IMG/VR virus record: IMGVR_UViG_3300042486_001111
From: a virus
Lineage: Duplodnaviria; Heunggongvirae; Uroviricota; Caudoviricetes
Strand: one strand, 5' to 3'
DNA: 41,891 bases
The position numbers and the translations under genes are program-made. Positions 9,494 through 41,369 of the stretch are shown one piece after another. Within the stretch, counting starts at the first letter, position 1, and every line of letters starts with the position of its first letter. A model generated the notes under the pieces. The model ran no database searches. It had not been told where the DNA came from and was given only the letters and a program-made list of their open reading frames with translations.

Positions 9494-10336
9494 TTAAAAC
9501 GCTACTACTTTACCTTGTTCCCAGTCTTTGAAGTTTGGACCTAATTCATATGTAATATTATTACCACCCCCTACTTTTTGTATGATACCTGATTGATTGG
9601 CTGCACTCCAAAAAGTAGAAAGTTGTCCACCACTTTCAGTTTGTCCTATATGATTTAAAAAACCTCTTTTAGTTTTTTTAGGTGAAATTGATACATCTTT
9701 AATATAATTTATTAAATCCCTAATCCTTGATTCATCACCTTTTTGGAATGTAATCCCCTTATGTTTTGGTATTAGTGTAATACCGTTTTTATTGGCAAAA
9801 TCTTTAACTATTGGTACAATACTTTCTATTCTACCACCTATTTTATCTTTTATTATTGATAGTTGTGTTATTGCCTCAATGGGAGTTTTATTATTAAAAA
9901 GATATTCTACTACATCATATAATATTACACCTACCGCATCGTTTAAAATAACATTTTCATATTTCCACGGAAAAGTTTTTTCTAACCTAATTAACTGTTT
10001 TATTTTTTCTAATGGGTTATTATTACTATTTAAAATTTTTTTAGATTCTCTTTCACTGATTAAATCAAATATCTCTTCAATCTTACCCCCATATTTCATA
10101 GAACTATTACTATAATAATCAAAATTTTTCCTAAAAAAATCTAAAAATATGTTATAAAATGTTTCATTATTTAATAAAATTTCTTTATCTAAACCAAACG
10201 TACTAAAAAAATTATTTAACCACTCTTCAATATTTTTATTATTGGTATTATCCTTAAAATACTGAATAAATCTATCCCACCTTTGGTTATTTTCAACCAA
10301 AAGTAAATGTTGTCTATTATTAATTATTACTTTCAT
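9494..10336 (-). CDS. Hypothetical protein with leader MKVIINNRQHLLLVE; C-terminal domain possibly winged-helix-like
   Basis: 280-aa ORF abutting the upstream gene; fold guess is inference. Confidence 0.7.
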   Translation of the reverse strand: MKVIINNRQHLLLVENNQRWDRFIQYFKDNTNNKNIEEWLNNFFSTFGLDKEILLNNETFYNIFLDFFRKNFDYYSNSSMKYGGKIEEIFDLISERESKKILNSNNNPLEKIKQLIRLEKTFPWKYENVILNDAVGVILYDVVEYLFNNKTPIEAITQLSIIKDKIGGRIESIVPIVKDFANKNGITLIPKHKGITFQKGDESRIRDLINYIKDVSISPKKTKRGFLNHIGQTESGGQLSTFWSAANQSGIIQKVGGGNNITYELGPNFKDWEQGKVVAF

Positions 10337-11352
10337 TATAAATTAGAAATTACGTGTTCCGTCATGTCCTCTTCTACCCTTCTACTGTCAGGATAAAAAT
10401 TATCAATATTCGGTCCTCTCAATTCATCATCTTGTTCAATTAAAACCTCATCTAAAACTTCTAAAAAATAGTTAGCGTTATCACCAGGAAATTTACCAGT
10501 GGACTCAACATACAGTTTTAAATATTGGTAAAATATATTCGTAACATCAAACTTTAATATGTGATTGATTTTATCACCTTTTTTAATCTCATCCCAATCA
10601 CCCTCTGAACCTAAAAATGTAGTTATTGTTTCTTTTATACCATTAAACAGTTCACCTTCAGAGGCACTATTATAAGACCATCTATACATATTTTTTAATT
10701 CCCATTTTAAGTCATTAAACATTTGTTCTTCGTCTATTAAGTGAAAAAGTGTGTATTTATCTTCTAATAATTCTTCAGTTAAAATATCCCCATACTCATC
10801 ATCTAACGTATAAATCTCTTTACCGATAAAATCATTTTCTTTGATGTATTCTCTAATATGGTTAATTGCCTTATCACTTAACACTTCAGTTACATCATTT
10901 TCGAAACTAATATCAAAATCACCGAATATTTCTGACCAATCAGGATCCAATATATCCTCAACTAAAGTTTTATCGTCTACATCAAATAAATCTGCCAAAT
11001 CCTTCCATTCACTACAAAACATATATATCCTATCACCCGATTTAATTATATCCCCAAAATCTGAATAGAAAGCCTCATTATCTGTAAGGTATTTGTCAAA
11101 CCAACCAATATTTGTTAGTATTGAAAACATATCATCGTTACCCACATAATAATCCAATTCTATATCAACCTCATCAAAAGGGTTTTCACCTTTATTCATT
11201 AGATAAGTAAATACACCCTCAATTACATCACTATAACTTAATTCTAATAACCCTTTTATATAGTCAATTACCTCAATATAATCTTCAAGTTCACCGTATT
11301 TTTTTTCAATAATCTTATTTATTGCGTTTTGTACCCTTTGATTTATCATCAC
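10336..11352 (-). CDS. Acidic hypothetical protein, possible paralog of 37137..38078
   Basis: 338-aa ORF; ATATTTAT at 11365-11372. Confidence 0.7.
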   Translation of the reverse strand: MMINQRVQNAINKIIEKKYGELEDYIEVIDYIKGLLELSYSDVIEGVFTYLMNKGENPFDEVDIELDYYVGNDDMFSILTNIGWFDKYLTDNEAFYSDFGDIIKSGDRIYMFCSEWKDLADLFDVDDKTLVEDILDPDWSEIFGDFDISFENDVTEVLSDKAINHIREYIKENDFIGKEIYTLDDEYGDILTEELLEDKYTLFHLIDEEQMFNDLKWELKNMYRWSYNSASEGELFNGIKETITTFLGSEGDWDEIKKGDKINHILKFDVTNIFYQYLKLYVESTGKFPGDNANYFLEVLDEVLIEQDDELRGPNIDNFYPDSRRVEEDMTEHVISNL

Positions 11353-11387
11353 TTTATTTTATTAATAAATATTGGTAATAAATAAAA

Positions 11388-11408
11388 AATCCCACTTTTG
11401 GTGGGATT
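11388..11408 (-). terminator. Intrinsic terminator
   Basis: Minus strand AATCCCAC-CAAAA-GTGGGATT followed by TTTTATT, after the 11432 stop. Confidence 0.8.
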
Positions 11409-11431
11409 CTATTATTTTATAATCTTTTTAA

Positions 11432-12859
11432 TTAAACGTATTTGTGAAGTTCTTCTACCTTTTTAAAATCACCTTTGTCCAATGCATCATCAATTAATTT
11501 CATTATTTCATTTTTAGACATTCTACTATAATCTACTTCGTCTGTTTCTATGTTTTCCACATCATCTTCCTTAGGTTCTACACCTAAATTATCTATAATA
11601 TCTTCCATATCATCATAACCTGTGTCATTAAACATATCTTCTATAGTATCACCCTTATCTTGATTATGTAAGTCTTTAAGTGTGTCTACAACCTCTTTAC
11701 ATCTTTGACTACCACTAAGTATTTCTTTCATAAATTCGTGAAATTGTGATGCAGGTAACTTAGTTAATTCTCTAAATAACCATTGTTTGATGTCGTAGTT
11801 TTCAGAATCAATACATTCTAAGAATTTCTCCCACATACCAGGACCTAATCTCATTCCCCATATCTCACCTTCAGGTGTATCTGCCTTTTCAATAACCTCT
11901 TTTTGTTCTTCAAAATCTAAATGATCGTCAGCCCAGTTAATTGCGGATAATTCTAATGTACCTTTAATTAATTCGTGTACTAATAGTGGGAAAATCCAAG
12001 CCTTAGCGACTACAACTGGAATATCATCACCCTCTTCAATATCGATTCTTTCCATATCATTTTCTTCATCTTTGTCTTCAGGTTTTTCAGCCTTTCTCCA
12101 TTCGATTTTTTCTACACCACCGACTTGTCCACCCATAACACTGTCAGGGATAATCCAATATTGGAAATCTGCCAATGACATAAGTTTACCGTATAGTCCC
12201 ATTAATCTAGGATCCAAAGCGTCTAATTCATCTGCAACCATATGGAAAATGTAGTGACCTTTTTTGGCTGCACCTTGCATAAGTGCATTGATAACTCTCC
12301 TTTTATCAACCTCCATTTCCAACTCTTCCATACGTTGAGCACTTTTAGGTTTTTTAGGTAATTCATAACCCTCACCTTCATCTTCGTCCTCATCTTCGTC
12401 TGGTTCAATACTTAATTCTGAACCTGGAGGTGTTAACGTTGCCTCTAACATTTGATCAGGAATATCGAATTCTTCAGATACTATATCAATAGCCAATTGT
12501 TCCAATGCTTCTTTGTGTCTAGTTTCGATTTGACTAATCTCACCCATTATTTGAAACATCATTTGCATCATATTAGGTGTAATATTTCTAACACCGTGAT
12601 ATCTTTTAACTTTATTAACAATTTCTTTGAATCTTTGTCCCGCAATTTTTTCAGAATAATTTTGTGACTCAGAACCAACTGGAATTGATTTACTCTTTCC
12701 GAATAAGTGTTCCCCACTTCTAAGTCTACCCTCTAAATCTGGATTCATCCTTTCTGGATGCTCAGGATCATATTCAATAGCCTCAACTAATTTGTTAAGT
12801 CGATATTTTTCTTTAATAACTCTATTAGTTACTTCGTTAATGATATTTTTTCTTCTCAT
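11432..12859 (-). CDS. Hypothetical protein, putative head/core component (likely start MRRKNIINE)
   Basis: Long ORF; ATG at 12859 avoids overlap with the upstream gene; leader has INE, IKE and LVE sites. Confidence 0.75.
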   Translation of the reverse strand: MRRKNIINEVTNRVIKEKYRLNKLVEAIEYDPEHPERMNPDLEGRLRSGEHLFGKSKSIPVGSESQNYSEKIAGQRFKEIVNKVKRYHGVRNITPNMMQMMFQIMGEISQIETRHKEALEQLAIDIVSEEFDIPDQMLEATLTPPGSELSIEPDEDEDEDEGEGYELPKKPKSAQRMEELEMEVDKRRVINALMQGAAKKGHYIFHMVADELDALDPRLMGLYGKLMSLADFQYWIIPDSVMGGQVGGVEKIEWRKAEKPEDKDEENDMERIDIEEGDDIPVVVAKAWIFPLLVHELIKGTLELSAINWADDHLDFEEQKEVIEKADTPEGEIWGMRLGPGMWEKFLECIDSENYDIKQWLFRELTKLPASQFHEFMKEILSGSQRCKEVVDTLKDLHNQDKGDTIEDMFNDTGYDDMEDIIDNLGVEPKEDDVENIETDEVDYSRMSKNEIMKLIDDALDKGDFKKVEELHKYV

Positions 12860-12870
12860 ATTTTTTGTTT

Positions 12871-13608
12871 TTATTGTCCATATACCGTACTTACCCACAT
12901 TTTAAATGAGTCACCAGCCATCTTTTCAAATACCCTTTGTACGTTTCTTAATTCAGTATTACCGTCACCATTTTCTATTCTAGCCAATGCTGCCCTTACT
13001 AAAATGTCTCTAATCTCTTGTTTATTATCTAAAAGATAGTTAATATGATTTAATTGTTCTTCCAATGAGTCTCTATCACCATCTGAATAACCCTCATCTT
13101 CATCCTCATCATAACTGTCTAAGTTTTCAATTTCTTCCTCTAAACTTTCAGGATCCTTACCCATTCCATATAACCATCTATGTAAATCATCTTTAGTCCA
13201 ATTTAATAATGGTGATGCACCATACATATTAATTAAACCACTTTGTCTAAGGTTCTCTAAAAATTTAAATACTTTAACTTTGTCTGCGGAAGGCATTTCT
13301 CTAATTACAAAATATTGTCTACCACCACCATTATCTGGTGTTTCGTTAATCCTAACTTTAGAATTAATATATTCTACTAAATCTTTTTTCTTCATTTTAG
13401 GATTTATCGATTCGTCTTTTTTTCTATGTGATTTTTTTACTGAACCTTTGTAACCTATAGAATCAGTACAAACTGCGTATGGGTTATAATCAGTACCATT
13501 ATCTTTATTTTTTTTCTCTACGTCTTTAACACATCTATCCCACTTTTTAGTGTGAACAGTATCATCTTTTTTTTCTTCTTTAGACTTTTCAAAAATATTA
13601 ATTCTCAT
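12871..13608 (-). CDS. Hypothetical protein with KWDRCVKDV...NPYAVCT motif and acidic segment
   Basis: ORF in an operon-like run; ATG at 13608, alternative GTG at 13617. Confidence 0.7.
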   Translation of the reverse strand: MRINIFEKSKEEKKDDTVHTKKWDRCVKDVEKKNKDNGTDYNPYAVCTDSIGYKGSVKKSHRKKDESINPKMKKKDLVEYINSKVRINETPDNGGGRQYFVIREMPSADKVKVFKFLENLRQSGLINMYGASPLLNWTKDDLHRWLYGMGKDPESLEEEIENLDSYDEDEDEGYSDGDRDSLEEQLNHINYLLDNKQEIRDILVRAALARIENGDGNTELRNVQRVFEKMAGDSFKMWVSTVYGQ

Positions 13609-13629
13609 AGTACTCACTATTATAATTTT

Positions 13630-13938
13630 TTATTTTAAGTTTTTAGAATTTTTTTCACCCTTCCCTACACGTGTAGCCCTTCTTAAATACTTAGACTTAC
13701 CCATAGAGTCTTTTTCCAATTCATCCTCCTCATTTACGGTTACTGAACGTATCTTACCCTCTTTATCTTTTACACCATAAGTACCTTTATCTAATTTATC
13801 AAAAGAACTATCAAATTCATCTTGATTGTAAACTGTCATCTCTTCTGCCTCGTCAACTGAATCAATATATTTTTCCATTAGTTTTCTTCTAGTGGCTCTT
13901 TTTATTTCAGATTCATAAATTCTAATTTTGTTACCCAT
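13630..13938 (-). CDS. Small hypothetical protein with leader KIRIYESEIK...LME
   Basis: 102-aa ORF, tightly packed. Confidence 0.7.
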   Translation of the reverse strand: MGNKIRIYESEIKRATRRKLMEKYIDSVDEAEEMTVYNQDEFDSSFDKLDKGTYGVKDKEGKIRSVTVNEEDELEKDSMGKSKYLRRATRVGKGEKNSKNLK

Positions 13939-13942
13939 AATT

Positions 13943-16370: not shown

Positions 16371-17165
16371 TTATAAATTTTTAATTCTTATTAATGATTC
16401 GTCTAGTGTTAAAGATTTATCATATGCCTTAGTTTCTATTTCACTTAATTTATCTAAATACATAGTTCTCCTTAATACTTTGAACGCTATATTCTCAAAA
16501 GAATACTCCCCTTCTCTATCTAATCCAGTTTGTCTCATCTTTTTGATTTTTTCTTTAAGATTGGTTATCTTCCTAATTGTTTTGTCATATTCACCTGACT
16601 TATACATAAAAAATATTTCATCTATTGAATCTATAATACCGTTAACTTTTTGTTCTACCTTTTTTGCGTCAATATCTTTTTTAGTTGAGTCTGGTTTAAC
16701 TACCCATCCATCCCATAAAATAGAATATACCCCACTAGAAACGTGAGGTTCCTCTGTGTCTTGCATATATAACTCTACGTCATAACCTTTTATTGTTATG
16801 TCGTGTTTATCGTTCCATAAATTTTTCTTTGAGTTGAAGTATTCCTTTACTAATTCTTCGTTTTCATCTACCTCTTCAAAATCCACTAATATATGTAAAT
16901 CTACATCCGAAAATTTAGACCAGTTAAAATTGGCTAAACTACCTGTTAATATAATATCGTCTATGTCTACCCAATCAACACTAAGGGTTTCAAAAAAATC
17001 ATCTGCAATCATAAGAAGTCTTCTTCTTATTTCTTCATACATGTGTTGATCTTTATCGAAAATTTTTGGGTTTAAAGTACTTCTAACTTCAAAAGAGGAT
17101 AAATCTATATTTTCTTTGTTAATGATATCATTAACTTCCTGTTCTGTAATTTTTTTAATATCCAT
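16371..17165 (-). CDS. Nucleotidyltransferase, DNA polymerase beta superfamily
   Basis: ILTGSLANFNWSKFSDVDLHIL fits hG[S]-x-DhDh; DVELY strand supplies a third acidic residue; two ATATTTAT copies upstream (17179-17186, 17198-17205). Confidence 0.85.
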   Translation of the reverse strand: MDIKKITEQEVNDIINKENIDLSSFEVRSTLNPKIFDKDQHMYEEIRRRLLMIADDFFETLSVDWVDIDDIILTGSLANFNWSKFSDVDLHILVDFEEVDENEELVKEYFNSKKNLWNDKHDITIKGYDVELYMQDTEEPHVSSGVYSILWDGWVVKPDSTKKDIDAKKVEQKVNGIIDSIDEIFFMYKSGEYDKTIRKITNLKEKIKKMRQTGLDREGEYSFENIAFKVLRRTMYLDKLSEIETKAYDKSLTLDESLIRIKNL

Positions 17166-21579: not shown

Positions 21580-21602
21580 ATTTTATTTATTAAATTTGAA
21601 TA

Positions 21603-21634
21603 CAAAGATAAGGATATTTATAATAAAAAACAAA
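21603..21634 (-). promoter_or_regulatory. Bacteroidota-type primary sigma promoter for the methyltransferase
   Basis: Minus strand TTTG (21631-21634), 20-nt spacer, TATCTTTG (21603-21610). Confidence 0.7.
21614..21621 (+). promoter_or_regulatory. Putative late-promoter motif ATATTTAT for clpC
   Basis: Exact motif on + strand 19 nt upstream of ATG 21641; orientation flips with the gene. Confidence 0.55.
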
Positions 21635-21640
21635 TCGTAT

Positions 21641-24678: not shown

Positions 24679-25203
24679 TTAGAATTGTGTATTATAAAGA
24701 CATTTAGTAATCTGTACTAAATTCGCAATATCTGTAGTAAAATCATATTTACTTACCCATTCATCTACAGATTCACCTGTTTGTGGTGTAAAATCGTCTT
24801 TAATATGTTTTCTTTTTGATTTACTATCATTAGACTTAAGATCCTTAATCACTTCGTCTATATGTCTTCTACAAAAATTAACTGTTTTTTCTACTGCCTT
24901 TTCTCTTAAAGTGACATCAGTTATTTTTGATAGGATACCAGCGTTAATTTCATCATTCTTTAACCCTTCACATCCAGTAACTGAAAATGTTACACCAGTT
25001 TTCATTTTCTTTAATAAAGTATTATCTGAAGAAGCGTTAGTACCTGCATTACCTGCATCCGTACTGTCGGATCTTAACCATTCAGGATATGTCTTAAAAC
25101 AAAACTTAAATGATATTTTTTCTTCTTTTAAAAGATATTTTTTAATTGATGCGATATCACTTTCTGTAAGTGTAACTACAACATTATTTTTTTTAATTTT
25201 CAT
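24679..25203 (-). CDS. Hypothetical protein with leader ...VTLTESDIASIKKYLLKE
   Basis: ATG at 25203 avoids overlap with the upstream gene. Confidence 0.7.
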   Translation of the reverse strand: MKIKKNNVVVTLTESDIASIKKYLLKEEKISFKFCFKTYPEWLRSDSTDAGNAGTNASSDNTLLKKMKTGVTFSVTGCEGLKNDEINAGILSKITDVTLREKAVEKTVNFCRRHIDEVIKDLKSNDSKSKRKHIKDDFTPQTGESVDEWVSKYDFTTDIANLVQITKCLYNTQF

Positions 25204-27886: not shown

Positions 27887-29302
27887 TTATTCCTCTTTAC
27901 GGTAAGCAGGGAATTTAATCTCAAAACGTCTATCTGGTCTAGTTTCTTCATTACTGTAAGGACTTTTAACATTCTGTGGTACACCGTCTTTTATTTTTGT
28001 CTCAGGTTGATTCCAAACTAACCCACTCCATTGGTTTGTTTCACCTTTACCTACTGCAACAAAATTCACATCTTTAAATGCACCATTCGCAATTGTTTTT
28101 AGGTATTCTACTACTGCTTTTGCTCTAGCCTCACTTAAACATTGATTGTATTTTACTCTCGGACCTTTACCCAAACCGTATTTAGAACAACCCGCGTAAC
28201 GACCACCATCAGGGAAATTGGATAACGCATCTATAGAAGCATATGCATTAACTACAATAGTTTTATCTTCTAAAAATTCTAAATACTCTTCTTTTCTATA
28301 TTGTGGGATAGGATTCCATATTTTAACAATGTTCTCATCAATTATATCTTTCGCTTCTTGAGTTAATACTGCCTCATCAATTGGAAAGTTTTTAATCGCT
28401 TCTACTGCAAAATCAAAAACAATTTCACCATCTTTACATCTTTCTGGTAACGGGCTACCGCACTCATATGTAATCTGTTCACCTGTTTCTACATCATTAC
28501 AAAAACATTTTGTTGGTTCTGGATCAGTTTTATTTGGATCGGGCTCACCCCAACTTTTAGGTATATCTGCACCGTTTATTTGAATTTTAGTAAGTTTAAC
28601 CTTAAAAGATGATTCTATCTCACCATAAAGATTATCATTTAGTTTAATGAAAAACCTTCTATTAAATGATAGTAATGTAATATCCTCCAGTTTAACTAAT
28701 TTGGCACCATTAACACTTTGTTTAATAGTCCTTTTTAAGTCCCTCTTATTACCAATCACCATCATTTTGAATGATATTGGCGTAGAACCTTCAGGTATTA
28801 ATCTCATTTTTATAGTTTCATTATCTATTTGATTTTTAATCGAATCATATCTATCATATAATAATCTAAAACATCTATCCTTTAAAAGTTCTTCCCTAAC
28901 TAAAGATACTGAAATATCGGTTGAGAATGGGATATATCTATCAGTTACTTTAAACATATATACACCCTTACTAGTTTTTGATAATGGTAACTCAACGTCA
29001 CCTATTTTGAAAAATATATTTTCTGGTCCAGTTGCAACTACCTTAACTTTTATCTGAGGTTCTATAACATTTAATTGTTTTTCTAATAAATCATTTAACT
29101 GATTACTCATTTGGAATGACACCTCAGGTGGTCCACCATATACTCTATCACACTCTCCCTCTTCAGGATCAGTATTTTTTCCTTCAGTACTCTTATTAAA
29201 ATTTTCTTCAGATAGTGAATCATGAGAATTTTCATTAATGTTAAATGACATTAATTTTCTCATTTTTTGTATTTCTTCGTTAAGGGTTTGAACTTTTTTC
29301 AT
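27887..29302 (-). CDS. Protein with leader TLNEEIQKMRKLM and C-terminal OmpA_C-like peptidoglycan-binding domain
   Basis: YASID...NQCLSEARAKAVVEYL...VGKGET...DRRFEI is the OmpA_C signature. Confidence 0.85.
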   Translation of the reverse strand: MKKVQTLNEEIQKMRKLMSFNINENSHDSLSEENFNKSTEGKNTDPEEGECDRVYGGPPEVSFQMSNQLNDLLEKQLNVIEPQIKVKVVATGPENIFFKIGDVELPLSKTSKGVYMFKVTDRYIPFSTDISVSLVREELLKDRCFRLLYDRYDSIKNQIDNETIKMRLIPEGSTPISFKMMVIGNKRDLKRTIKQSVNGAKLVKLEDITLLSFNRRFFIKLNDNLYGEIESSFKVKLTKIQINGADIPKSWGEPDPNKTDPEPTKCFCNDVETGEQITYECGSPLPERCKDGEIVFDFAVEAIKNFPIDEAVLTQEAKDIIDENIVKIWNPIPQYRKEEYLEFLEDKTIVVNAYASIDALSNFPDGGRYAGCSKYGLGKGPRVKYNQCLSEARAKAVVEYLKTIANGAFKDVNFVAVGKGETNQWSGLVWNQPETKIKDGVPQNVKSPYSNEETRPDRRFEIKFPAYRKEE

Positions 29303-29310: not shown

Positions 29311-29475
29311 TTATCTTCTTCTATTTCTATTTTCTGACAATCTTTTAGATTCTCTTTGTCTTAAAGATTCAGTAACTTGCGCTCTTTTTTCTCTTTTTAC
29401 TTCATTAACAATTCTTTCTACTAAGTTAATCATTTCTGATTCAGTCAATCTAATCACTTTTTTTTCTCTTCTCAT
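29311..29475 (-). CDS. 54-aa basic micro-protein absent from the ORF track (MRREKKVIRLTESEMINLVERIVNE...SENRNRRR)
   Basis: Manual translation ATG 29475 to TAA 29311; carries the shared leader; ATATTTAT at 29509-29516. Confidence 0.75.
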   Translation of the reverse strand: MRREKKVIRLTESEMINLVERIVNEVKREKRAQVTESLRQRESKRLSENRNRRR

Positions 29476-29536: not shown

Positions 29537-31183
29537 TTATCTAAATGTAATTGTTCCACCTACTTCATCCACTAAACTTTGGAATTCTTTTGCATTATCA
29601 GGTGATAAGTTATTTACCACATCAGAGTTCACACCAAAACGAATAAATGTTTCGTCCTCTATCATTTTTGTTAATACAGGTACATTAATTTCTTTTATAG
29701 GATTGTTTAATAATGTGATCATGAAACATTCTTTTAATGTTTCATAACCATCTAAAGGTGCCTTAGTAATTTGGTTGTCATTGAAACTAAGTACGTTAAT
29801 CATTCTACCACCATCAGGTAAGATATTCACAGATGGTAACTCAGTTAAATTACAATTATTTGCAGTAATTCTATCTACCTTGTGGAATTTAGACATATTT
29901 GGCAATTTACCTAAATTCATATTAGAAAAGTCTAAAGATTCTGTAACCTCAGGATCTAAATAATCCAATATCTCCACATTCTCAGTATTTTCCATCAACC
30001 ACTTCAAATATTTGTTTTGTTGTAAAGGAACTTTTTGTTGTGAAGCCAATTTTTTAATGTTATCAACACCTTTTTGGTAAACTTCACCAGAAATAACTTC
30101 CTCTGCCTTACCACCAAACATATTCATATATTTAATGTATGCACTATCCATAAGTCCTGTACCTTTAACTACATCCATCTCAACTAACTTACCCAATTCC
30201 TTTTTAAAGAAATCCTTTAATCCTGGAAATCTACTTAGAACTTCACTAAGTTTAGAACTTCTTTCTATTGACTGGTTGTTTTTATCGTGTAACTGATTAG
30301 ATTCAAAGTGGAATTGTAATGGATACATACCACCCTCATCATCTCCTGAGAATAAAGCTTTAGGCATAATTACATAATAATCCGATAATGTACCGTCAGG
30401 TTTAGGGTTATTTCTTCTGTAAGAATCAAAATAACTATTACCCTCTCTTCTAGTACACCATGAGGCTAAAGGACCTAAAGGATCACAACTAGACTCAATA
30501 GTCTGTGGTGAATATACTAAAACACCATTATCTCTATAAACTAATTTCGCCTCACCAAGATCAACATATTTTTTTAATTTTTTCCAAAGAGGACTTTCAC
30601 CATCTTCACTATCATCATCTGATGATCCAATAAACGGACTCACTACCGAATAAAGATGTGCCAAATCATTATATTGATTTATGTCTGTAACATTTTGAGG
30701 TGCATTTGGTCTATTAGGTGCACTTCTCTTAAATACTTTTTTATCCTTAACACCATCAAAAATAGTTAAGAACTCATTTGCTTCAGGTAAATCTTCAGTC
30801 AAAAATCTAATCGCTTGTTCAATATCACCATCCGCAATATGTCTTAAGAAAACTTGAATCATCCATTGAACATATTGTTTATTTCTTGATGGATCTGCCT
30901 CAACAATGTCATTAAATATTTCATCTGTTAATTTTACAGATTGTTTACCTTTATTATTTGTTACAATATAAGCAATGTCTACACCATCATGATTTTCTAT
31001 GGGTTCTACTTTAATTTTGTTAGGATCCATACCACCCTCAGGTCTCTTACTTTTTTTCTCTAACTTACCTTTAGTTAAGTCATCTAATAATTTGGGGTCA
31101 ATGACATTTTGAGTCTTCAAAAAGGCAACTCTATCTTCTTTTAATAAAATTCTATATTGATTTTCTGTTATAATGTACTTCAT
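29537..31183 (-). CDS. Leader-bearing protein with a central SWCT-motif domain and C-terminal leucine-rich repeats
   Basis: MKYIITENQYRILLKE leader; LASWCT..EGN.YF..Y; LRR-like LDFSNMNLGKLP, ITANNCNLTELP, LSFNDNQITKAP, ITLLNNPIKEI; ATATTTAT at 31198-31205. Confidence 0.75.
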   Translation of the reverse strand: MKYIITENQYRILLKEDRVAFLKTQNVIDPKLLDDLTKGKLEKKSKRPEGGMDPNKIKVEPIENHDGVDIAYIVTNNKGKQSVKLTDEIFNDIVEADPSRNKQYVQWMIQVFLRHIADGDIEQAIRFLTEDLPEANEFLTIFDGVKDKKVFKRSAPNRPNAPQNVTDINQYNDLAHLYSVVSPFIGSSDDDSEDGESPLWKKLKKYVDLGEAKLVYRDNGVLVYSPQTIESSCDPLGPLASWCTRREGNSYFDSYRRNNPKPDGTLSDYYVIMPKALFSGDDEGGMYPLQFHFESNQLHDKNNQSIERSSKLSEVLSRFPGLKDFFKKELGKLVEMDVVKGTGLMDSAYIKYMNMFGGKAEEVISGEVYQKGVDNIKKLASQQKVPLQQNKYLKWLMENTENVEILDYLDPEVTESLDFSNMNLGKLPNMSKFHKVDRITANNCNLTELPSVNILPDGGRMINVLSFNDNQITKAPLDGYETLKECFMITLLNNPIKEINVPVLTKMIEDETFIRFGVNSDVVNNLSPDNAKEFQSLVDEVGGTITFR

Positions 31184-31222: not shown

Positions 31223-32080
31223 TTATTTAATAGCGTCTGATCTAACCCATCCAGTTGTAAACCCATCTACTTTTTTATCTAAGGTTACTTGATACCATTG
31301 GTACCCATCATCATCGGTTTTAATTTTAGTTATCGTACCAATTTTATTCGGTGACATTATTTTAGCAACTCTATCACTTTCTCTATTAGCATCTTTTCTA
31401 ACATTTGCATATCCTTCAGATTCTTTAGGGTATACAGTACTACCTACTGAATGTGAACCCTTTTCTTCTTTTTTGGTGGTGGCACTTGTAGTACTTTTAA
31501 CATTACCATTAGTTTTTTTATAGGTTCCATTAATATAATCATGTATTCTTTTTGCGGATTGCTTTCTTATATTTATTGTCCCACCGCAGTCACCACATCT
31601 TTCGGATTTCGTAGCGAAACTTTCAGCCTTTGCTGGTATAGTGTCACTTTTCATCGCACTATTAAATTGGTTTATTTCAAATTTTGGAGAATCTTTAATA
31701 CCACTAGGTAAATTAGGTATTAATTCACCACCTACTTTATACCCATCTTTCAATTCTATCTTAATAAAATCTAATTGTAGTTTTTCACTATTTACATCTA
31801 CACCTCTATGAGATGCCAAAGAATTTAAAGCCTTTTTTCTATCACCTAACCATTGTAATAATCCAAATGCACCATTAGATCCCTCATTAGTCGAATCAAA
31901 CTGGGATTCTGCCCATATATTTCCTGCCATTGCACACGCAGCATCTAATCCAAAACCTCTATTTTGTAATTTAGTCACAATATCTTTGGCTTTATCTAAA
32001 TATTCGTCAGTAACTACCTCTTGTTTGGTTTCATACAATAAAACCTTTTTTAATTGTGTTTCCGTTATAATTATACGCAT
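31223..32080 (-). CDS. Phage tail lysozyme-like muramidase with C-terminal SH3b-like domain
   Basis: AACAMAGNIWAES (catalytic Glu) and GAFGLLQW; C-terminal ANVR...W..V...GWV.SD; leader MRIIITETQLKKVLLYE; ATATTTAT at 32097-32104. Confidence 0.85.
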   Translation of the reverse strand: MRIIITETQLKKVLLYETKQEVVTDEYLDKAKDIVTKLQNRGFGLDAACAMAGNIWAESQFDSTNEGSNGAFGLLQWLGDRKKALNSLASHRGVDVNSEKLQLDFIKIELKDGYKVGGELIPNLPSGIKDSPKFEINQFNSAMKSDTIPAKAESFATKSERCGDCGGTINIRKQSAKRIHDYINGTYKKTNGNVKSTTSATTKKEEKGSHSVGSTVYPKESEGYANVRKDANRESDRVAKIMSPNKIGTITKIKTDDDGYQWYQVTLDKKVDGFTTGWVRSDAIK

Positions 32081-34396: not shown

Positions 34397-34798
34397 ATGA
34401 AATTGTTAGATATTATATCTGAAGACACACAAATACCATTTAAAAATAAATGTCTGATAACTATTACGAATAATAATGGTGAAGAAATTGACGTTGAGTG
34501 TGAAGTACCTAGTACTGAAGAAGAAAAAGTTACTGGTTTAATGTATAGAGACAATCTTTGTCAAAACTGTGGTATGTATTATGACTACGTTAGTAGTGGT
34601 TTTTGGATGAAGAACGTTAACTTCCCTATTGAGATGATTTTTGTGAACGGAGATACTATTGTAGATATTAAAAGTGCGTATCCTAATGACATATCAATTA
34701 TTAAACCTTCAGAATTTTCAGACGGTAATATAGAAGTAAATGAAGGATTTTGTGAGAATAATAATATCTCTATAGGTAATACTTTTTATAAGTCATAA
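34397..34798 (+). CDS. DUF192 domain protein with leader MKLLDIISE
   Basis: EEEKVTGLMYR..L...GM, FWMKNV.FP.EMIFV and IEVNEG motifs; CTATTTAT just upstream. Confidence 0.85.
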   Translation: MKLLDIISEDTQIPFKNKCLITITNNNGEEIDVECEVPSTEEEKVTGLMYRDNLCQNCGMYYDYVSSGFWMKNVNFPIEMIFVNGDTIVDIKSAYPNDISIIKPSEFSDGNIEVNEGFCENNNISIGNTFYKS

Positions 34799-35199
34799 AT
34801 TTCAGGATTCTCATCCCCAAATTGTCTAACTAATCTACCAGCCCTAGCATTCGCCTCATCTTCCCAAGGAGAACCTTTTTCACCTTCACCTTTGTTACCC
34901 CTTAAGTCACCCCTTACGTTTTGATTATGGTGTACCATTTCATGTGCAATTGATCTAATTATATCAGGTATTGCTCTATTCTTTTTAACTACGGTAATCT
35001 CTTTTCCTTCAATATCATAATTACCTAAAGTATCAACACTATCAGTATTGTCTGTTAAATTTATTTTGAAATCGTCACCTAATGATAATTCACTCTTACC
35101 AAATTCAATAAAATCTTCGACAATACCTTCGTTAATGTTATTTCTAACTATATTGGATACTTCTTCTTTTAATATACGTTTAATTAATTTTTTCATCAT
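34786..35199 (-). CDS. Small zincin-type metallopeptidase with leader MKKLIKRILKE
   Basis: IAHEMVHHNQ (HExxH) plus downstream WEDEAN. Confidence 0.75.
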   Translation of the reverse strand: MMKKLIKRILKEEVSNIVRNNINEGIVEDFIEFGKSELSLGDDFKINLTDNTDSVDTLGNYDIEGKEITVVKKNRAIPDIIRSIAHEMVHHNQNVRGDLRGNKGEGEKGSPWEDEANARAGRLVRQFGDENPEIYDL

Positions 35200-36471: not shown

Positions 36472-37113
36472 TTAAATTGGATTATATTCACCCATTTTAA
36501 AGGGTTCTAATATTGGGTTTATTGCGTGTAACGAATAACTACCATCTGGACGATATTCAGCGTACACAAACTCTGCACCCAACACTTTATTATTGGCATC
36601 GGCAGTATAAAAATAATCAGAAATAAATGGGTTATATTTTATTTCTTCTGCCATATTTTTTAAATTAATTGGATCGTCAGGTAAATCTTGTACTACCCCA
36701 CCAACTCCAACTACTTGAGATCTTTTCGCAATTTCACCTACATCTTGTGTCGTTCTCATTATATTATGATAACCTAGACTAATATCAAAATTAATATCAC
36801 CACCTATAAGTATGTCATTGGTATATCCGATAATTCCAGGTGTAGAATGTTTTCTACCCCTTTTAGTTCTACCATATACACCAAACGCACCATTTTTATT
36901 GTGTTTGATATTATGTCTGTTAGTATGAAACCATACTTCTTTACCTAATAATTCAGGTGAATCACCCTCTAAATAACCGTGTTGTGCCTTTGGCGCAATA
37001 ACAGGTTCGCCCATCTCTGGATGATATGGGGGTGTTTCATTAATCATTCTATCCCTCATTTCCATAAGTAGATTAACTTTCTTAATATTATTTATTTTAT
37101 CTCTTGTTCTCAT
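36472..37113 (-). CDS. Hypothetical protein with leader RDKINNIKKVNLLME...MINE
   Basis: 213-aa ORF; ATATTTAT at 37119-37126. Confidence 0.7.
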   Translation of the reverse strand: MRTRDKINNIKKVNLLMEMRDRMINETPPYHPEMGEPVIAPKAQHGYLEGDSPELLGKEVWFHTNRHNIKHNKNGAFGVYGRTKRGRKHSTPGIIGYTNDILIGGDINFDISLGYHNIMRTTQDVGEIAKRSQVVGVGGVVQDLPDDPINLKNMAEEIKYNPFISDYFYTADANNKVLGAEFVYAEYRPDGSYSLHAINPILEPFKMGEYNPI

Positions 37114-37136
37114 ATATTATAAATATAACTTTAATG

Positions 37137-38078
37137 TTAATAATTTAATCTATCAGATAGTATTTCATTAAAATAACCCCAATCTATATCTCCAGCCCCA
37201 CCATATCTAAAATGTTTATCCGTATTAATTCGTATTAAGTCATCGGGAAAAAAGTAATTATATTCACCACTGTACCCATCCTGTTCTTTTTCTTTAATTC
37301 CTGCAAAAATATCAATTAAATCAGGGTAATAACTATATAATGCATCTTCTACTACATCTTGATACCACTCACTGTTTGTTAACTCACCTATTTCTAAACT
37401 ACCAACAAATTTTAACCCTAAACTCTTTTCATCTGCAACTAGTTTTCCGTTAAGGTTGGAAAGGTAGTCTAATACCCCATTTTCAAAATCTGAATGTAAG
37501 TATTCGACATCCGCACTGTTTTGTGCCTCAGATGCGGAACAACCTATTTCTGTATCATATTCGGATTGAATGTATTCATAAAAACCTTCTTCACTTTCCT
37601 CACCTTCTAAATCTCTTAAATATTTTTCCTTTAGAGTTTCGATATTTTTTTCGTTAATCTTATCAATCAACCAAGAATCTACATCCATACAATCGTAATC
37701 ATAATTATAGTCATAGTCACCATTAAAATAATCCCTAACCATTCTTTGTATATCATAATCTCTATCATCTGCGAAAAATTCTGATAAAGTGTTACCATCA
37801 AATTCAAATGTTATATAAAACGGTGTTCTATTTTCATATTCAGTTAAATATTTGTAGGCAATATTATATTCTTTTTGATATTGATCGTAATCACCTTCAA
37901 AGTCCTCACCAAATTGTAAGTCCTCAATTGTTTTAAACATTCTTTCAGGATTTTTATCTAATAACTTAAAAACCCTCTCATAAAATTTTTCAGGAAAAAT
38001 ATTGTCTTTAGTATAATCTAAATCTCCCCCATTCTCAGTATTCTCCATTAAAATATTTTTAATTAATTTTTTCATCAT
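37137..38078 (-). CDS. Acidic hypothetical protein with leader MKKLIKNILME
   Basis: 313-aa ORF; start overlaps the upstream stop. Confidence 0.7.
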   Translation of the reverse strand: MMKKLIKNILMENTENGGDLDYTKDNIFPEKFYERVFKLLDKNPERMFKTIEDLQFGEDFEGDYDQYQKEYNIAYKYLTEYENRTPFYITFEFDGNTLSEFFADDRDYDIQRMVRDYFNGDYDYNYDYDCMDVDSWLIDKINEKNIETLKEKYLRDLEGEESEEGFYEYIQSEYDTEIGCSASEAQNSADVEYLHSDFENGVLDYLSNLNGKLVADEKSLGLKFVGSLEIGELTNSEWYQDVVEDALYSYYPDLIDIFAGIKEKEQDGYSGEYNYFFPDDLIRINTDKHFRYGGAGDIDWGYFNEILSDRLNY

Positions 38079-39125: not shown

Positions 39126-39662
39126 TTATAAATTTTGTTCTATTGTAGTCATTATGTAATTATAAACACCTCTATAATCTTCTTCATCCATCATAGATAA
39201 ATAATCTATTATTTCTTCATTGTGAGCATCGTGTGAACTGTGTGCATGATACTTTACAAATTTTTTAAAAGAGTCATAATTTCTCATATTATATTTCTTA
39301 CCATTATAACCTTCAACACGATAAGGATCCTCTTGATACTCAATAAAATCTTCATAAAGAACTGGACCTAAATTATATACATAATTTTCTTTTTTTAGGT
39401 ATAAAGATATTTCACGCCATAATATCTCACACTCTTCTTTATTTAACCCATAATGATACATTAAATATTCTATTATATAATCATTAACATACCCACCATT
39501 TTTTAACACTACATTTATTCCAGATCCTTTATGGATAGTTAATTTACCTTGTCTATCATCGTAGATGTTAATTACTATTCTACCATCCTCAAACAATATA
39601 TCTTTTTTTAAAATATTGAATATTTTATTTAATAATACTCTATTTACACTTTCACCATTCAT
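39126..39662 (-). CDS. Hypothetical protein (178 aa)
   Basis: ATATTTAT at 39689-39696; N-terminus ends ...ILFE. Confidence 0.7.
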   Translation of the reverse strand: MNGESVNRVLLNKIFNILKKDILFEDGRIVINIYDDRQGKLTIHKGSGINVVLKNGGYVNDYIIEYLMYHYGLNKEECEILWREISLYLKKENYVYNLGPVLYEDFIEYQEDPYRVEGYNGKKYNMRNYDSFKKFVKYHAHSSHDAHNEEIIDYLSMMDEEDYRGVYNYIMTTIEQNL

Positions 39663-39733: not shown

Positions 39734-40000
39734 ATGAGAAAAAAAGTAGATAGTAATTTACCGAAAGACTCTTCACCTAAAAAAAGAGAGGAGGTAAAAG
39801 AAACTAAGGGTTCTATTATTAAATCCTCTTCAGATACTAATTCCAGATGGGATAAAGTAAAAGGTGTTAATGGTAAAATTGTTAGATTCAAAATAGATGA
39901 TAAAGAAAGGAAAGAATTTCTTTCACAAAAAAAATACCGTCAACTCTATGTGGGAATTGACGGTAATGATTTATATTTTTATTACGAAATCTTAGATTAA
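39734..40000 (+). CDS. Basic hypothetical protein (88 aa)
   Basis: Follows a host-type promoter; stop overlaps the convergent gene's stop. Confidence 0.65.
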   Translation: MRKKVDSNLPKDSSPKKREEVKETKGSIIKSSSDTNSRWDKVKGVNGKIVRFKIDDKERKEFLSQKKYRQLYVGIDGNDLYFYYEILD

Positions 40001-40437
40001 GGGTTGTTACTATTAAATTGTGAATTTACGTTCTGATTAGGTCGATTTCTATTTCTATCATTAGAAACTGAATCTTCTAAATCTTCTATAATAATATCAT
40101 TAGTATCTATTGATATTCTAAATGCCTCCAACGCATCGCTAATATGTGTCGATAACCTATCAAAAGAGGTGTTAGTCATTTGAGACCGATTAGATCTATC
40201 TAAAATTCTATTTAAATCTCTTATTGCCCCCTCCATATCTTCGTTTAGTTCTTTAAGTTTCCCAACCATTTCGTAGGCATATTTAGTATAACTATATCCA
40301 GTTCCCCTAACTAAACCACCAAGACCTTTAATTGAAGAGATAACGCCCTCCTCAACATTTTTTGGAGTATTATCTACAATCTTTTTAAGTTCATTTTCAG
40401 TTAGTTCAATAACTTTTCCGTTTTTTCTAATTTTCAT
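39997..40437 (-). CDS. Helical hypothetical protein with leader KVIELTENELKKIV
   Basis: 146 aa; ATATTTAT at 40453-40460. Confidence 0.7.
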   Translation of the reverse strand: MKIRKNGKVIELTENELKKIVDNTPKNVEEGVISSIKGLGGLVRGTGYSYTKYAYEMVGKLKELNEDMEGAIRDLNRILDRSNRSQMTNTSFDRLSTHISDALEAFRISIDTNDIIIEDLEDSVSNDRNRNRPNQNVNSQFNSNNP

Positions 40438-40510
40438 AACTATATTTTACATATAAATATGTTGACTAACATAAAAATAGTTTAAAAACAGTAATTGTAA
40501 AAAAAATTTT

Positions 40511-40541
40511 TTTGTAGTTTGAAAAAAATTTCGTATCTTTG
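40511..40541 (+). promoter_or_regulatory. Bacteroidota-type primary sigma promoter
   Basis: TTTG (40511-40514), 19-nt spacer, TATCTTTG (40534-40541). Confidence 0.75.
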
Positions 40542-40560
40542 TATTATAAAACACACAATT

Positions 40561-40959
40561 ATGACTTTCAAATACACACAACCGAAGACTGAAAATGACA
40601 TTAAATGTAATGGTGATTGTATGGTTAGGGCGGTAACCATAGCAACAAATTTTGAATACGGTAAAGTACATAAACTTATGTACGATAATGGATGGAGGGC
40701 GTCTAAAAGAACTGATAAAGATTGGGAGAGTCAAATAACTAAAACTTTAGTTGACTTAGGTTTTAGTTATGAGAGAATTACATTCCCAGGTGTTAAAGGT
40801 GAGAAAAGAATGACTGCCAAAACATTGGCAAAAATTGATCCAGAAGGTAAATATATTATTAGGGTATCTAAACACGTTTCAGTATTGAATGGTGGGGTAC
40901 TTTTAGATACTTGGGATTGTTCTGATAAATGTGTTTACTTTGTATGGAAAATAAAATGA
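40561..40959 (+). CDS. Hypothetical protein with GDCMVRA...H...DTWD motifs (possible Cys-His-Asp enzyme)
   Basis: ATG 40561 follows the promoter; motif spacing is papain-like (inference). Confidence 0.7.
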   Translation: MTFKYTQPKTENDIKCNGDCMVRAVTIATNFEYGKVHKLMYDNGWRASKRTDKDWESQITKTLVDLGFSYERITFPGVKGEKRMTAKTLAKIDPEGKYIIRVSKHVSVLNGGVLLDTWDCSDKCVYFVWKIK

Positions 40960-41159
40960 AGAGACACTGTAAGGAGTGTCCACACATTATCCGTAATCAA
41001 CATAATGATATGATTGTTAGTTTTGTGGAAAGAACTGGTAAGAAACATAATTGTCATATGATAATTAAGGGTAAAAATAAAAAACTCTGGACTGTTGATC
41101 CAGAGTTTGAATGTTGTGGTAGTATTAATTTAATATCTACCTGTAATATAAACAAATAA
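40956..41159 (+). CDS. Small Cys/His-rich protein, possible zinc finger
   Basis: ATGA overlap with upstream stop; CKECPH...HNCHM...CCG. Confidence 0.65.
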   Translation: MKRHCKECPHIIRNQHNDMIVSFVERTGKKHNCHMIIKGKNKKLWTVDPEFECCGSINLISTCNINK

Positions 41160-41369
41160 TACTTCAGGTATTCTTACACACTGTGTACTGTTACCATCTC
41201 TATCTGTACAACCAATAACCTCTAACCCTCTTACAATATTTTTGATATTAGATGGTGCAGTTCTGGTTACATTTTCAATATGTTGTTTACTATATAATTT
41301 TTGAGAATCGTAATATGACTCTTCTATTATACCTCTTAATTGTTTTTCAGTTATAATTACTTTTTTCAT
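41130..41369 (-). CDS. Small protein with leader MKKVIITEKQLRGIIEE
   Basis: ATG 41369 lies 1 nt past the upstream stop. Confidence 0.7.
   Translation of the reverse strand: MKKVIITEKQLRGIIEESYYDSQKLYSKQHIENVTRTAPSNIKNIVRGLEVIGCTDRDGNSTQCVRIPEVLFVYITGRY

Follow-up and report, generated by a model that had tools for sequence, protein, structure and literature searches.

Short N-terminal tags on many unrelated proteins of a giant T4-like lake phage as candidate capsid-targeting propeptides

Variants of one short peptide head about one third of the genes neighbouring the head-assembly genes of an uncultured, giant, T4-like phage from a lake, and the peptide ends where the head protease encoded by the phage itself is predicted to cut. 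The most likely reading of these sequences is a clip-off address label that would bring into the virus head many proteins unrelated to one another; there are about 17 tagged genes in the window (the whole 41,891-nt stretch analysed) and about 40 in a 291-kb relative, G009. By analogy with T4, the tag would be a capsid-targeting propeptide removed by the prohead protease, at a much larger scale, and a probability of roughly 0.6 is given to this reading. The predictions of T4-type capsid targeting that can be computed all held, namely the protease, the tag boundary, the capsid site, selection on the peptide, the promoter box and a detachable tag. The proposal of the first-pass annotation is therefore partly supported: these predictions favour it, whereas some of its leaders and part of its cargo list did not stand.

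A single family of N-terminal tags

The leader N-termini quoted in the first-pass annotation were all found at the starts of their genes, on the minus strand. Its wider motif, [ILV]-x-E within 30 residues, is non-discriminating, as [IL]-x-E is present in about 30% of 25-residue windows taken from protein interiors. Enrichment over shuffled N-termini was nonetheless borne out for h-h-x-Glu (h, hydrophobic), which lies within the first 25 residues of 18 of 49 window genes, against 7.2 +/- 2.4 in composition-preserving shuffles of the same genes' N-termini (maximum 16 in 1000) and 6.1 predicted from internal windows; h-[IL]-[TN]-E occurs in 10/49 versus an expected 1.6 +/- 1.2. Likewise, when all six reading frames were scanned with an HMM of eight class A leaders, only N-termini scored, the non-seed matches being four leaders just past the window end, and nothing internal exceeded 4.2 bits. 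All 20 genes on the other side of the capsid gene (L003) are untagged.

Membership was judged by matching window N-termini to N-termini of unrelated proteins in G009. About 19 leaders had been claimed; 13 are firm and 4 plausible, and 3 did not rise above noise: ILFE at 39126-39662, the leader of the plus-strand DUF192 gene at 34397 and that of the gene starting at 127. The tagged genes are given below, with predicted cuts as slashes and positions of the promoter box ATATTTAT where noted.

29537..31183, minus strand: class A, firm, 548 aa, MKYIITENQYRILLKE/D; matches the start of a G009 protein unrelated to it at 32.5 bits, HMM match at the N-terminus only; box at -22
31223..32080, minus strand: class A, firm, 285 aa, MRIIITETQLKKVLLYE/T; Phage_lysozyme2 (PF18013, E 5e-18, beginning at residue 30) plus SH3-like domain
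41130..41369, minus strand: class A, firm, 79 aa, MKKVIITEKQLRGIIEE/S; best HMM match 24.4 bits, 35.4 bits to G009 N-termini
29311..29475, minus strand: class A, firm, MRREKKVIRLTESEMINLVERIVNE/V, then only 29 Arg/Lys-rich residues; N-terminus aligns with the canonical tag, 34.1 bits to that of G009
24679..25203, minus strand: class A, firm, 174 aa, MKIKKNNVVVTLTESDIASIKKYLLKE/E, starting at the ATG at 25203 and not the upstream TTG; HMM match, 24.0 bits to one G009 canonical tag
39997..40437, minus strand: class A, firm, 146 aa, MKIRKNGKVIELTENELKKIVDN..., without a clean terminal [IL]-x-E; HMM match, 24.8 bits; box at -23
16371..17165, minus strand: class A, firm, core gene, 264-aa nucleotidyltransferase (Pfam NTP_transf_2, phrog_36119), MDIKKITE/QEVNDIINKE...; box at -21
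9494..10336, minus strand: class A variant lacking the first Glu, plausible, 280 aa, MKVIINNRQHLLLVE/N; 23.5 bits, MKVIINNRQ to MKIIITERQ
13630..13938, minus strand: class A, plausible, 102 aa, MGNKIRIYE/SEIKRATRRKLME/K; HMM seed, cross-genome match only 17.6 bits
25223..27181, minus strand: class B, firm, 652 aa, MRKNTLTEEIYRMRKLMG..., without a clean terminal [IL]-x-E and with no Pfam family match; 28.6 bits to ...LISEINRMRDLMG in a G009 protein unrelated to it; box at -25
27887..29302, minus strand: class B, firm, 471 aa, MKKVQTLNEEIQKMRKLMSFNINE/N; 29.5 bits
14341..15972, minus strand: class B-like, firm, core gene, 543 aa, ...DKVNRMLDLMGKMATLNE/S; matches INRMRDLMG in a G009 protein unrelated to it (25.7 bits), and its own G009 orthologue reads ...DKIRRIMEIA... 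at the equivalent place
34786..35199, minus strand: class C, firm, 137 aa, MMKKLIKRILKE/E, zincin-like body (HEMVH); 31.6 bits, 22 G009 N-termini at 18 bits or more
37137..38078, minus strand: class C, firm, 313 aa, MMKKLIKNILME/N; 27.8 bits
32531..33313, minus strand: class C, firm to moderate, 260 aa, MVTKSKIRRILQE/S; 22.3 bits (IRRILQE to IRRILRE), 9 G009 N-termini at 18 bits or more versus 0 internal
11432..12859, minus strand: plausible, core gene, 475 aa, MRRKNIINE/VTNRVIKE/K; 21.8 bits, near noise; the G009 orthologue begins MGHKELEKLIRRIVKE/A
36472..37113, minus strand: plausible, 213 aa, MRTRDKINNIKKVNLLME/MRDRMINE/T; 22.3 bits, gapped match; box at -13

The division into three separate leader classes was not upheld: in G009 all variants form one connected component, of 44 proteins, and 96 N-terminal pairs reach at least 24 bits versus 3 for internal segments. 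Classes A, B and C are thus variants of one family. The tagged bodies gave no blastp match to one another with E <0.01.

Tags are also kept among orthologues. The 38 orthologues of 31223..32080 retain theirs, with Y, N, T, F or A as the x of L-L-x-E, and about 120 orthologues of the nucleotidyltransferase, which is conserved lineage-wide, keep M-x-I-x-[KR]-[IL]-[TKE]-E-Q-E-V; one shorter homologue is without the first ~20 residues. A protein identical to that of 39997..40437 is present in 185 blocks of a public assembly collection, from which 18 carrying contigs were examined. A strain variant (L006) of the 37137..38078 product is 97% identical, with 6 of 8 differences in residues 8-18 and I-L-x-E kept.

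The prohead module and the end of the tag

The tagged genes lie beside a prohead module that is complete and of the T4 type. It runs from the portal through two small genes to protease, scaffold and capsid, as do T4 genes 20-67-68-21-22-23.

214..2010, minus strand: gp23-like major capsid protein, 598 aa (phrog_138, E 2e-66)
2048..3544, minus strand: scaffold-like core protein at the place of gp22 (by synteny with T4 genes 21-22-23)
3646..4335, minus strand: prohead protease of the T4 gp21 family, 229 aa (phrog_207, E 8e-41; aligned with T4 gp21)
4381-4818 and 4930-5694, minus strand: two small genes between portal and protease, at the positions of T4 gp68 and gp67
5738-7633, minus strand: portal (phrog_213, E 3e-61)
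7687-9483, minus strand: large terminase (phrog_2, E 1e-45)

All of 60 homologues keep the catalytic His95 and Ser158 of the protease, and the profile of the family finds the prohead protease of T4 (PDB 5JBL) at E 6.5e-35. T4 gp21 cleaves after L/I-x-E and itself has an LIE site near its N-terminus (PMC9026906), which L15-x-E17 of the window protease, conserved in at least 90% of the homologues, resembles. The capsid protein has a predicted propeptide cut after A-L-L-N-E60/S, and the LNE/S site noted earlier proved to be a conserved L-N-E/S where T4 gp23 has L-T-E/A (F-L-T-E65/A in the alignment; F-L-I-N-E/A in the G009 orthologue). In the scaffold-like protein, IIE, LLE and IVE sites lie in a helix at the N-terminus and LNE sites in helical sequence at the C-terminus, which the G009 orthologue shares; the stretch between the two is long and acidic. 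The two small genes, both with orthologues in G009, encode the N-termini MKLGKEIKLDLLE/N and ...FKQLMIE/S.

In its fullest form the tag is MKKIIRLTESDLxRIVKRVIxE, 22 residues that begin >500 metagenome proteins whose bodies are unrelated. Across a non-redundant set of 89 metagenome proteins bearing this canonical tag, I20 is 98% and E22 99% conserved with position 21 free, and information drops from >4 bits to <1 bit within three residues past E22. Tag conservation thus stops directly past I-x-E, and the terminal Glu residues of the window tags are predicted cut sites.

The 10-residue capsid-targeting sequence (CTS) of T4 suffices to package foreign proteins (PMC9026906, PMC3012670). The window tags have the same layout as the proven T4 signals, which in the T4 record are MKTYQEFIAE/A in IPII and IPIII, MAKINELLRE/S in gp24 and MELITE... 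in Alt. The likeness is one of layout alone, with no significant sequence similarity of the tags to the T4 CTS, and the canonical tag is twice as long and carries in addition an invariant inner L-T-E. The 13 residues conserved past this first L-T-E find no explanation in the T4 model. The product of 29311..29475, a tag plus a 29-residue peptide (pI 11.9), resembles basic internal head peptides. The first-pass annotation put the scale far beyond T4, which holds for T4 itself; processing of ~19 head proteins is, however, already known from phiKZ-like phages (PMC9026906).

Tagged genes and head genes have a common promoter box. Within the window, ATATTTAT lies 13-41 nt before the portal gene, 4930-5694 (at 24 nt), the protease gene and eight tagged genes. 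The box precedes the capsid, scaffold and protease genes of G009, as well as 18/44 tagged genes versus 52/296 others there (Fisher p 0.001). Sec-signal genes have TAnnTTTG in its place.

The protease is present in 15/15 tag-bearing contigs of at least 100 kb that include the head region and in 8 of the 9 with a completeness of at least 90%; the ninth breaks off next to its ClpB gene. As these contigs come from one related lineage, common descent means that the association is not an independent test.

Cargo and alternative readings

The identifiable tagged bodies are mostly peptidoglycan-directed: M23 (two), Phage_lysozyme2 (two), PG_binding_1, LysM, VanY, SH3 and a weak OmpA. The body of 29537..31183 is possibly a leucine-rich repeat (an Atlas lead, score 0.93, points to viral LRR clusters). 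Two entries in the earlier cargo list did not hold, since DUF192 belongs to the untagged plus-strand gene and the C-terminal OmpA-like match of 27887..29302 (E 6.5e-4) is below Pfam's cut-off.

T4 cargo works in the cytoplasm, and thus peptidoglycan-directed bodies suggest another destination, which the T4 model does not explain. Such bodies are as expected of virion-associated lysins acting from outside, and the tag could be an uncleaved docking peptide fixing enzymes, chiefly cell-wall hydrolases or binders, to the outside of the capsid, the tail, the baseplate or a different assembly of the phage, much as otherwise unrelated tail fibres and tailspikes have conserved N-terminal anchors. An exposed appendage would serve this purpose, and late-type promoter boxes equally suit tail genes. 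In the AF2 model of the 31223..32080 product the tag is indeed an appendage outside the folded body, with residues 1-20 unpacked at pLDDT 39-54 and the body >90. This also favours capsid targeting, which predicts a detachable tag, as does the zincin protein (34786..35199), whose residues 16-134 have their homologue in residues 2-123 of a 710-aa G009 protein that bears no tag. Docking is nevertheless considered unlikely: it leaves unexplained why conservation ends at I-x-E with a free x and why the same motif occurs in the capsid propeptide and at the protease N-terminus, ~40 proteins per genome is far above known anchor systems, and 29311..29475 offers practically no body to display.

One gene of another kind lies antisense amid the tagged genes, with a ATATTTAT box at -27.

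21596..24106, plus strand: ClpB/ClpC-like double AAA+ protein (Pfam AAA_2 E 2e-65, Clp_N, ClpB_D2-small)

It occurs in 16/19 tag-bearing relatives, including 9/9 of those at least 90% complete, and its Clp_N is a substrate or adaptor domain. The tag might accordingly be a recognition sequence for a phage machine other than the prohead, such as this unfoldase or a modifying enzyme, although a link between the ClpB/ClpC-like protein and the tags is speculative. This seems quite improbable: the co-occurrence reflects one lineage, the protease co-occurs with the tags at least as well, the window proteins scanned included no modifying enzyme, whether radical-SAM or of another type, and both the I-x-E boundary and the capsid-site match would be left unexplained.

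A third alternative, in which the common leaders reflect nucleic acid or expression and the peptide is functionless, either as A-rich initiation regions in a host without Shine-Dalgarno sequences or as homology boxes for cassette recombination only, is hardly credible: AAA-rich MKK starts do occur on untagged and signal-peptide genes, and strain variants differ in cassettes, with differences clustered at the tag-body junction of 37137-38078, but tags are kept over 22 codons in hundreds of proteins, upstream DNA of tagged genes is unconserved except for the promoter box, and codon analysis largely refutes it. Codon identity at identical tag residues is 0.55, 0.61 and 0.69, where codon usage by itself would give 0.49, 0.57 and 0.56. 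Synonymous codons are thus near-random while the residues are kept, and selection therefore acts on the peptide, not the DNA.

A proposed route into the head

No virion proteome was found in the literature for any phage with these tags. From the sequences we infer a probable route for the tagged proteins, by way of core binding, packaging, cleavage and ejection. Under the capsid-targeting reading, tagged proteins would be made late in infection alongside the prohead proteins, and the basic, partly helical N-terminal tag would bind the acidic scaffolding core, so that each core-bound protein would be enclosed as the shell forms. The gp21-family protease (3646-4335) would then cut after the Glu of the [IL]-x-E ending the tag, possibly with a further cut after the inner L-T-E. 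This would free the mature protein within the head, to leave with the DNA at the next infection. To our knowledge, some 40 tagged genes per genome, some of them encoding proteins of >600 aa, would be beyond anything shown for a T4-type head.

A T4-type head module and its protease

The window comes from a giant T4-like freshwater phage, since a protein identical to one of this phage is found on a 270-kb contig and the relatives measure 240–412 kb; its host is probably a member of the Bacteroidota. The G+C content is 30 %, and nearly all genes lie on the − strand. The overlapping IMG/VR fragment G001 covers window positions 1–19827 and extends 18 kb past the window start, and at the window end the sequence runs on in metagenome contigs. 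Megablast of the window against GenBank phages returned no match; by capsid protein, the nearest cultured relative is Flavobacterium phage vB_FspM_immuto (42 % identity). A complete T4-type head module is located at the low end of the window:

214–2010, − strand, capsid protein (phrog_138)
2048–3544, − strand, acidic scaffold-like gene
3646–4335, − strand, prohead protease (phrog_207)
4381–4818 and 4930–5694, − strand, two small genes between portal and protease
5738–7633, − strand, portal
7687–9483, − strand, large terminase

From the portal through the two small genes, the protease and the scaffold to the capsid, the arrangement matches T4 genes 20-67-68-21-22-23. Over its full length the window protease can be aligned with T4 gp21; His95 and Ser158 do not vary among 60 homologues, and the sole match of the family profile to solved structures is the T4 prohead protease (5JBL, E 6.5e-35). 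Many of the close homologues are 385–620 aa long with the match broken in two near residue 90–100, which suggests an insertion of ~170–390 residues, possibly an intein, near the catalytic His of these long forms.

T4 gp21 cuts after L/I-x-E; it removes the capsid targeting sequences (CTS) of IPI, IPII and IPIII and also strips Alt and gp24 of their propeptides. A foreign protein is packaged into the T4 head when it is given no more than the initial 10 residues of IPIII (PMC9026906, PMC3012670). In the T4 record gp23 has F-L-T-E65|A, and the N-termini are MAKINELLRE|S in gp24, MKTYQEFIAE|A in IPII and IPIII, and MELITE in Alt. At the place of the T4 capsid site, and with the predicted cut before S or A, the window capsid has A-L-L-N-E60/S and its orthologue in the 291-kb relative G009 has F-L-I-N-E/A. 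The protease family itself keeps L-x-E at residues 15–17. The N-terminal tags described below end in the same motif as the capsid and protease sites, with the same free middle position.

One tag family on unrelated proteins

The first-pass annotation had listed shared N-terminal leaders, in three classes, on proteins with unrelated bodies. All the quoted N-termini are found in the window. Of 49 genes, 18 have a hydrophobic-hydrophobic-x-Glu pattern within their first 25 residues, against 7.2 ± 2.4 in shuffles of the same N-termini (1000 runs, none of which reached 18) and 6.1 predicted from internal windows; the narrower h-[IL]-[TN]-E is present in 10, where shuffles give 1.6 ± 1.2. When an HMM seeded with eight class A leaders was run over all six frames, only N-termini scored, the matches starting 0–8 residues after a Met, and four non-seed leaders were recovered outside the window. 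All 20 genes beyond the capsid gene are tag-free. The bodies are indeed unrelated, with no body-to-body blastp match below E 0.01.

Parts of the earlier description did not hold. An [ILV]-x-E within 30 residues is uninformative alone, because ~30 % of internal windows contain one. Membership, judged by matching window N-termini to those of G009, came to 13 firm and 4 plausible genes, with three looser cases left at noise level: the gene starting at 127, 39126–39662, and the DUF192 gene 34397, which lies on the + strand and is dropped as tagged cargo. Nor are the classes separate. All-vs-all comparison of G009 N-termini gave 96 pairs of at least 24 bits, all with unrelated bodies (internal segments gave 3), and all leader variants fall in a single component with 44 members. 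True Sec signal peptides make up another component, of 8 proteins, which serves as a positive control.

Just beyond the window end, genes of the same genome start MKKIIRLTESDLNRIVKRVISE. A search of 5.8 billion proteins with residues 1–40 of one such gene product gave 559 matches (E ≤ 10), most of which begin with a nearly invariant MKKIIRLTESDLxRIVKRVIxE followed by wholly different sequence. The tag is at residue 1 in 103 of 120 metagenome matches and mostly behind an upstream in-frame extension in the rest. Among 89 non-redundant canonical tags, which were selected on positions 1–9 from matches chosen for similarity to the query, I20 is conserved at 98 % and E22 at 99 %, positions 13 and 21 are free, and information content drops within three residues past E22; query residues 23–40 were equally open to matching, yet unmatched.

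Read against this 22-residue form, class A is a shortened or diverged version of the whole tag, class C (MKKLIKRILKE) matches its second half and class B (xLxEEIxRMRKLMG...[IL]-x-E) is a further variant. In 38 orthologues of the tagged lysozyme L-L-x-E is kept, with x being Y, N, T, F or A; 25223 and 39997 are the exceptions to a terminal [IL]-x-E among tagged window genes. Helical amphipathicity is significant in canonical and class C tags but not in MKIIITE-type starts, and 'one amphipathic helix' was therefore dropped as a general description. Genes 41130–41369 and G009 215852–216334 share GII-x-E-x-YYD-x-(Q/K)KLY directly after two different tags, and this may be a second short conserved element opening the mature protein; an apparent body homology of 41130 to a G009 class B protein reduces to an 18-residue motif.

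At identical residues of paralogous tags, codon identity is 0.55, 0.61 and 0.69, compared with 0.49, 0.57 and 0.56 expected from codon usage. Because these values are near expectation and the DNA upstream of paralogous tags is not conserved, the constraint is on the peptide. The tag also behaves as a separable module. In the tagged lysozyme the Pfam domain begins at residue 30, and an AF2 model gives residues 1–20 a pLDDT of 39–54 and the body > 90. The zincin-like body of 34786–35199 is homologous to residues 2–123 of an untagged 710-aa G009 protein. In 37137–38078, 6 of 8 differences between strains fall at the tag–body junction, with I-L-x-E kept and a replaced cassette adjoining. A few metagenome proteins (P0020, P0107, P0063) have a canonical tag between two modules; P0020 carries one tag at its N-terminus and a second, without Met, at residue 226. 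Such internal tags could reflect polyprotein-like processing or gene fusions.

Tagged genes share a promoter box with the head genes. ATATTTAT lies 13–41 nt upstream of the portal gene, 4930–5694, the protease gene, a ClpB-like gene and eight tagged genes. In G009 it precedes the capsid, scaffold and protease genes, and it is found at 18 of 44 tagged genes vs 52 of 296 others (odds ratio 3.2, p 0.001) and at 0 of 8 signal-peptide genes. Both tag and box are absent from thymidylate synthase (18979–20028, − strand) and DNA methyltransferase (20656–21579, − strand), which separate the conserved block near the head genes from the variable arm of tagged genes. Among the tagged genes lie these + strand genes:

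21596–24106, + strand, ClpB/ClpC-like protein (double AAA+, Clp_N domain), antisense to the tagged genes
24164–24664, + strand, Sec-signal gene
27277–27882, + strand, Sec-signal gene
33652–34146, + strand, Sec-signal gene

The three Sec-signal genes have near-identical MKNL[IV]IL...YSQ or FSQ starts, and each has, in place of the ATATTTAT box, a Bacteroidota-type TAnnTTTG 26–29 nt upstream; one belongs to the CAP/SCP family (PF00188). From these starts and motifs they appear to encode exported proteins of a different expression class. The tags themselves are not Sec or lipoprotein signal peptides, being charged throughout and having no uncharged hydrophobic core of ~10 or more residues.

Distribution, strain variation and cargo

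In the public assembly collection, 185 blocks list proteins of this phage, which is abundant in some lakes. Exact DNA patterns of the canonical tag matched at least 120 IMG/VR stretches. The protease is present on 15 of the 19 tag-bearing contigs of at least 100 kb, and on 8 of the 9 that are at least 90 % complete; the ninth breaks off beside its ClpB gene, just short of the expected position of the head module. Because these contigs form one related lineage, the co-occurrence is a matter of consistency and not an independent test. tblastn of the canonical tag against GenBank phages gave no match. A 24-column tag alignment also found nothing in immuto or G001; that search missed known weak tags as well, and is thus too insensitive.

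Inspection of immuto revealed similar starts. Its genes 111631–112095, 113144–113902 and 113962–116487 begin MKKQILSEQFRRMQKLAGIITE/S, MKKSQLRQIIKE/A and MKKLIRIVE/A (the slash marking the predicted cut). In the immuto_3-5A record, locus 4214–11961, upstream of the terminase, holds several genes with short tags ending [IL]-x-E, and two neighbouring genes share ...F(N/D)L(R/K)(S/K)FL(T/V)E|NKLT.

Tagged genes 11432, 14341 and 16371, which adjoin the terminase, are conserved, tag-like starts included. No homologue of any accessory tagged window gene (24.6–41.4 kb) is found in G009. Across window 35623–39124, two strain variants (L006 and L007) have a 573-aa Laminin_G_3 protein in place of a 349-aa gene product and a 415–418-aa product in place of one of 278 aa, with flanking genes ~97 % identical.

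The window, its extension and G009 together supply 63 tagged proteins, of which only ~10 have an identified Pfam domain; most bodies could be assigned no function by Pfam or PHROGs. Most of the identified bodies act on or bind peptidoglycan: Peptidase_M23 (two), Phage_lysozyme2 (two), PG_binding_1, LysM, VanY, SH3 and a weak OmpA match. Further domains are a nucleotidyltransferase and DUF2237. A 548-aa tagged protein may be a leucine-rich repeat protein (an Atlas lead); 25223 is rejected as OmpA, its Atlas score of 0.80 being at noise level. Gene 29311 consists of a tag and a 29-residue peptide of pI 11.9.

Relation to known systems and meaning of the tags

Like the T4 CTS, the window tags are short N-terminal peptides that precede unrelated mature parts and end in L/I-x-E, and as in T4 a gp21-family protease is encoded inside a syntenic prohead module. 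Class C, with a predicted cut at MKKLIKRILKE/E, has the same length and layout as the starts of T4 gp24 and IPIII. However, no tag aligns significantly with the T4 CTS MKTYQEFIAE, for which Mullaney and Black (1996) is reportedly the source; layout alone is shared (M-K, hydrophobic positions, terminal I-x-E). The fullest tag also differs in having 22 residues and two candidate sites (L-T-E9 and I-x-E22). Where T4 has a handful of such genes, ~17 are tagged in the window and ~40 in a relative, and the predicted cargo extends to large proteins and to many domains directed at peptidoglycan.

Repoila, Tetart, Bouet and Krisch (1994) reportedly described hyperplastic ip loci of T-even phages in which diverse internal-protein genes share only a CTS-coding start (summarised in PMC3012670). 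Likewise, the predicted cargo here differs strongly from one relative or strain to the next, the tag being retained, and strain cassette differences have their junction in the tag region; unlike those loci, tens of genes are involved, in a 30–90 kb arm beside the head module, with several tag variants together.

In phiKZ-like giants (201phi2-1, phiKZ, SPN3US), diverged gp21 homologues process head and inner-body proteins (PMC9026906, PMC10052503). As is predicted for the present giant phage, a gp21-type protease there cleaves dozens of head-associated proteins behind a Glu, and the propeptides of those phages have redundant sites. Those propeptides are long and not shared between proteins, whereas here a single short, near-identical tag recurs; the phiKZ motif is S/A/G-x-E (PMC9026906), and with I or L at P3 and a short, shared leader the window tags are not propeptides of this type. 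A review suggests that the CTS may be a general loading route for varied proteins in T4-like phages (PMC9026906). A literature search for the tag string returned nothing, such tags were not found described beyond T4 and phiKZ-type phages in the papers searched, and no virion proteome of a tag-bearing phage, immuto included, was found.

The best-supported explanation is a T4-type system of capsid-targeting, protease-processed tags, more numerous than in T4 and with a longer, two-site tag. The probability assigned to it, about 0.6, reflects that all steps beyond translation are inferred. In the T4 model the cargo acts in the cytoplasm, so that model does not predict the cell-wall bias seen here; the bias would be in keeping with envelope release, or with a wholly different destination. 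In T7-like phages, internal core proteins are released into the envelope. Foremost among the alternatives is an uncleaved docking peptide for another virion site. Next comes a recognition tag for another phage machine, for example the ClpB-like AAA+ protein, whose gene is kept in 16 of 19 tag-bearing relatives, always ~10–25 kb from the head module or nearer, and has both the ATATTTAT box and a TAnnTTTG motif upstream. An expression or recombination element is largely excluded, being contradicted by the codon analysis.

Building on capsid targeting, a wider picture is put forward tentatively, as rather unlikely to hold in full. In a widespread lineage of 240–410 kb T4-like phages of freshwater Bacteroidota, ~1/8 of genes would be swappable, sequence-readable cargo, loaded into the head by a 22-residue tag in two parts, an extended h-h-L-T-E piece and an amphipathic helix with I-x-E at its end, and freed of it by cuts at two protease sites; much of this cargo would form a peptidoglycan-remodelling kit passing from the head to the cell envelope, and the ClpB-like unfoldase may help. 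We know of no such delivery in contractile-tailed phages, and the cell-wall bias raises the question of where head-borne proteins are released in a phage of this kind.

The window contributes the head module itself, matching capsid and protease sites, a common promoter box and a cultured relative with similar tags; since immuto carries them, the idea is open to bench test. Proteins carried by phages are usually invisible to annotation and are often counter-defence or take-over factors. Should the tags function like those of T4, sequence alone would be enough to list what is carried into the host by a large group of giant phages that are abundant but uncultured, and the tag would be a handle for packaging foreign proteins into Bacteroidota phages.
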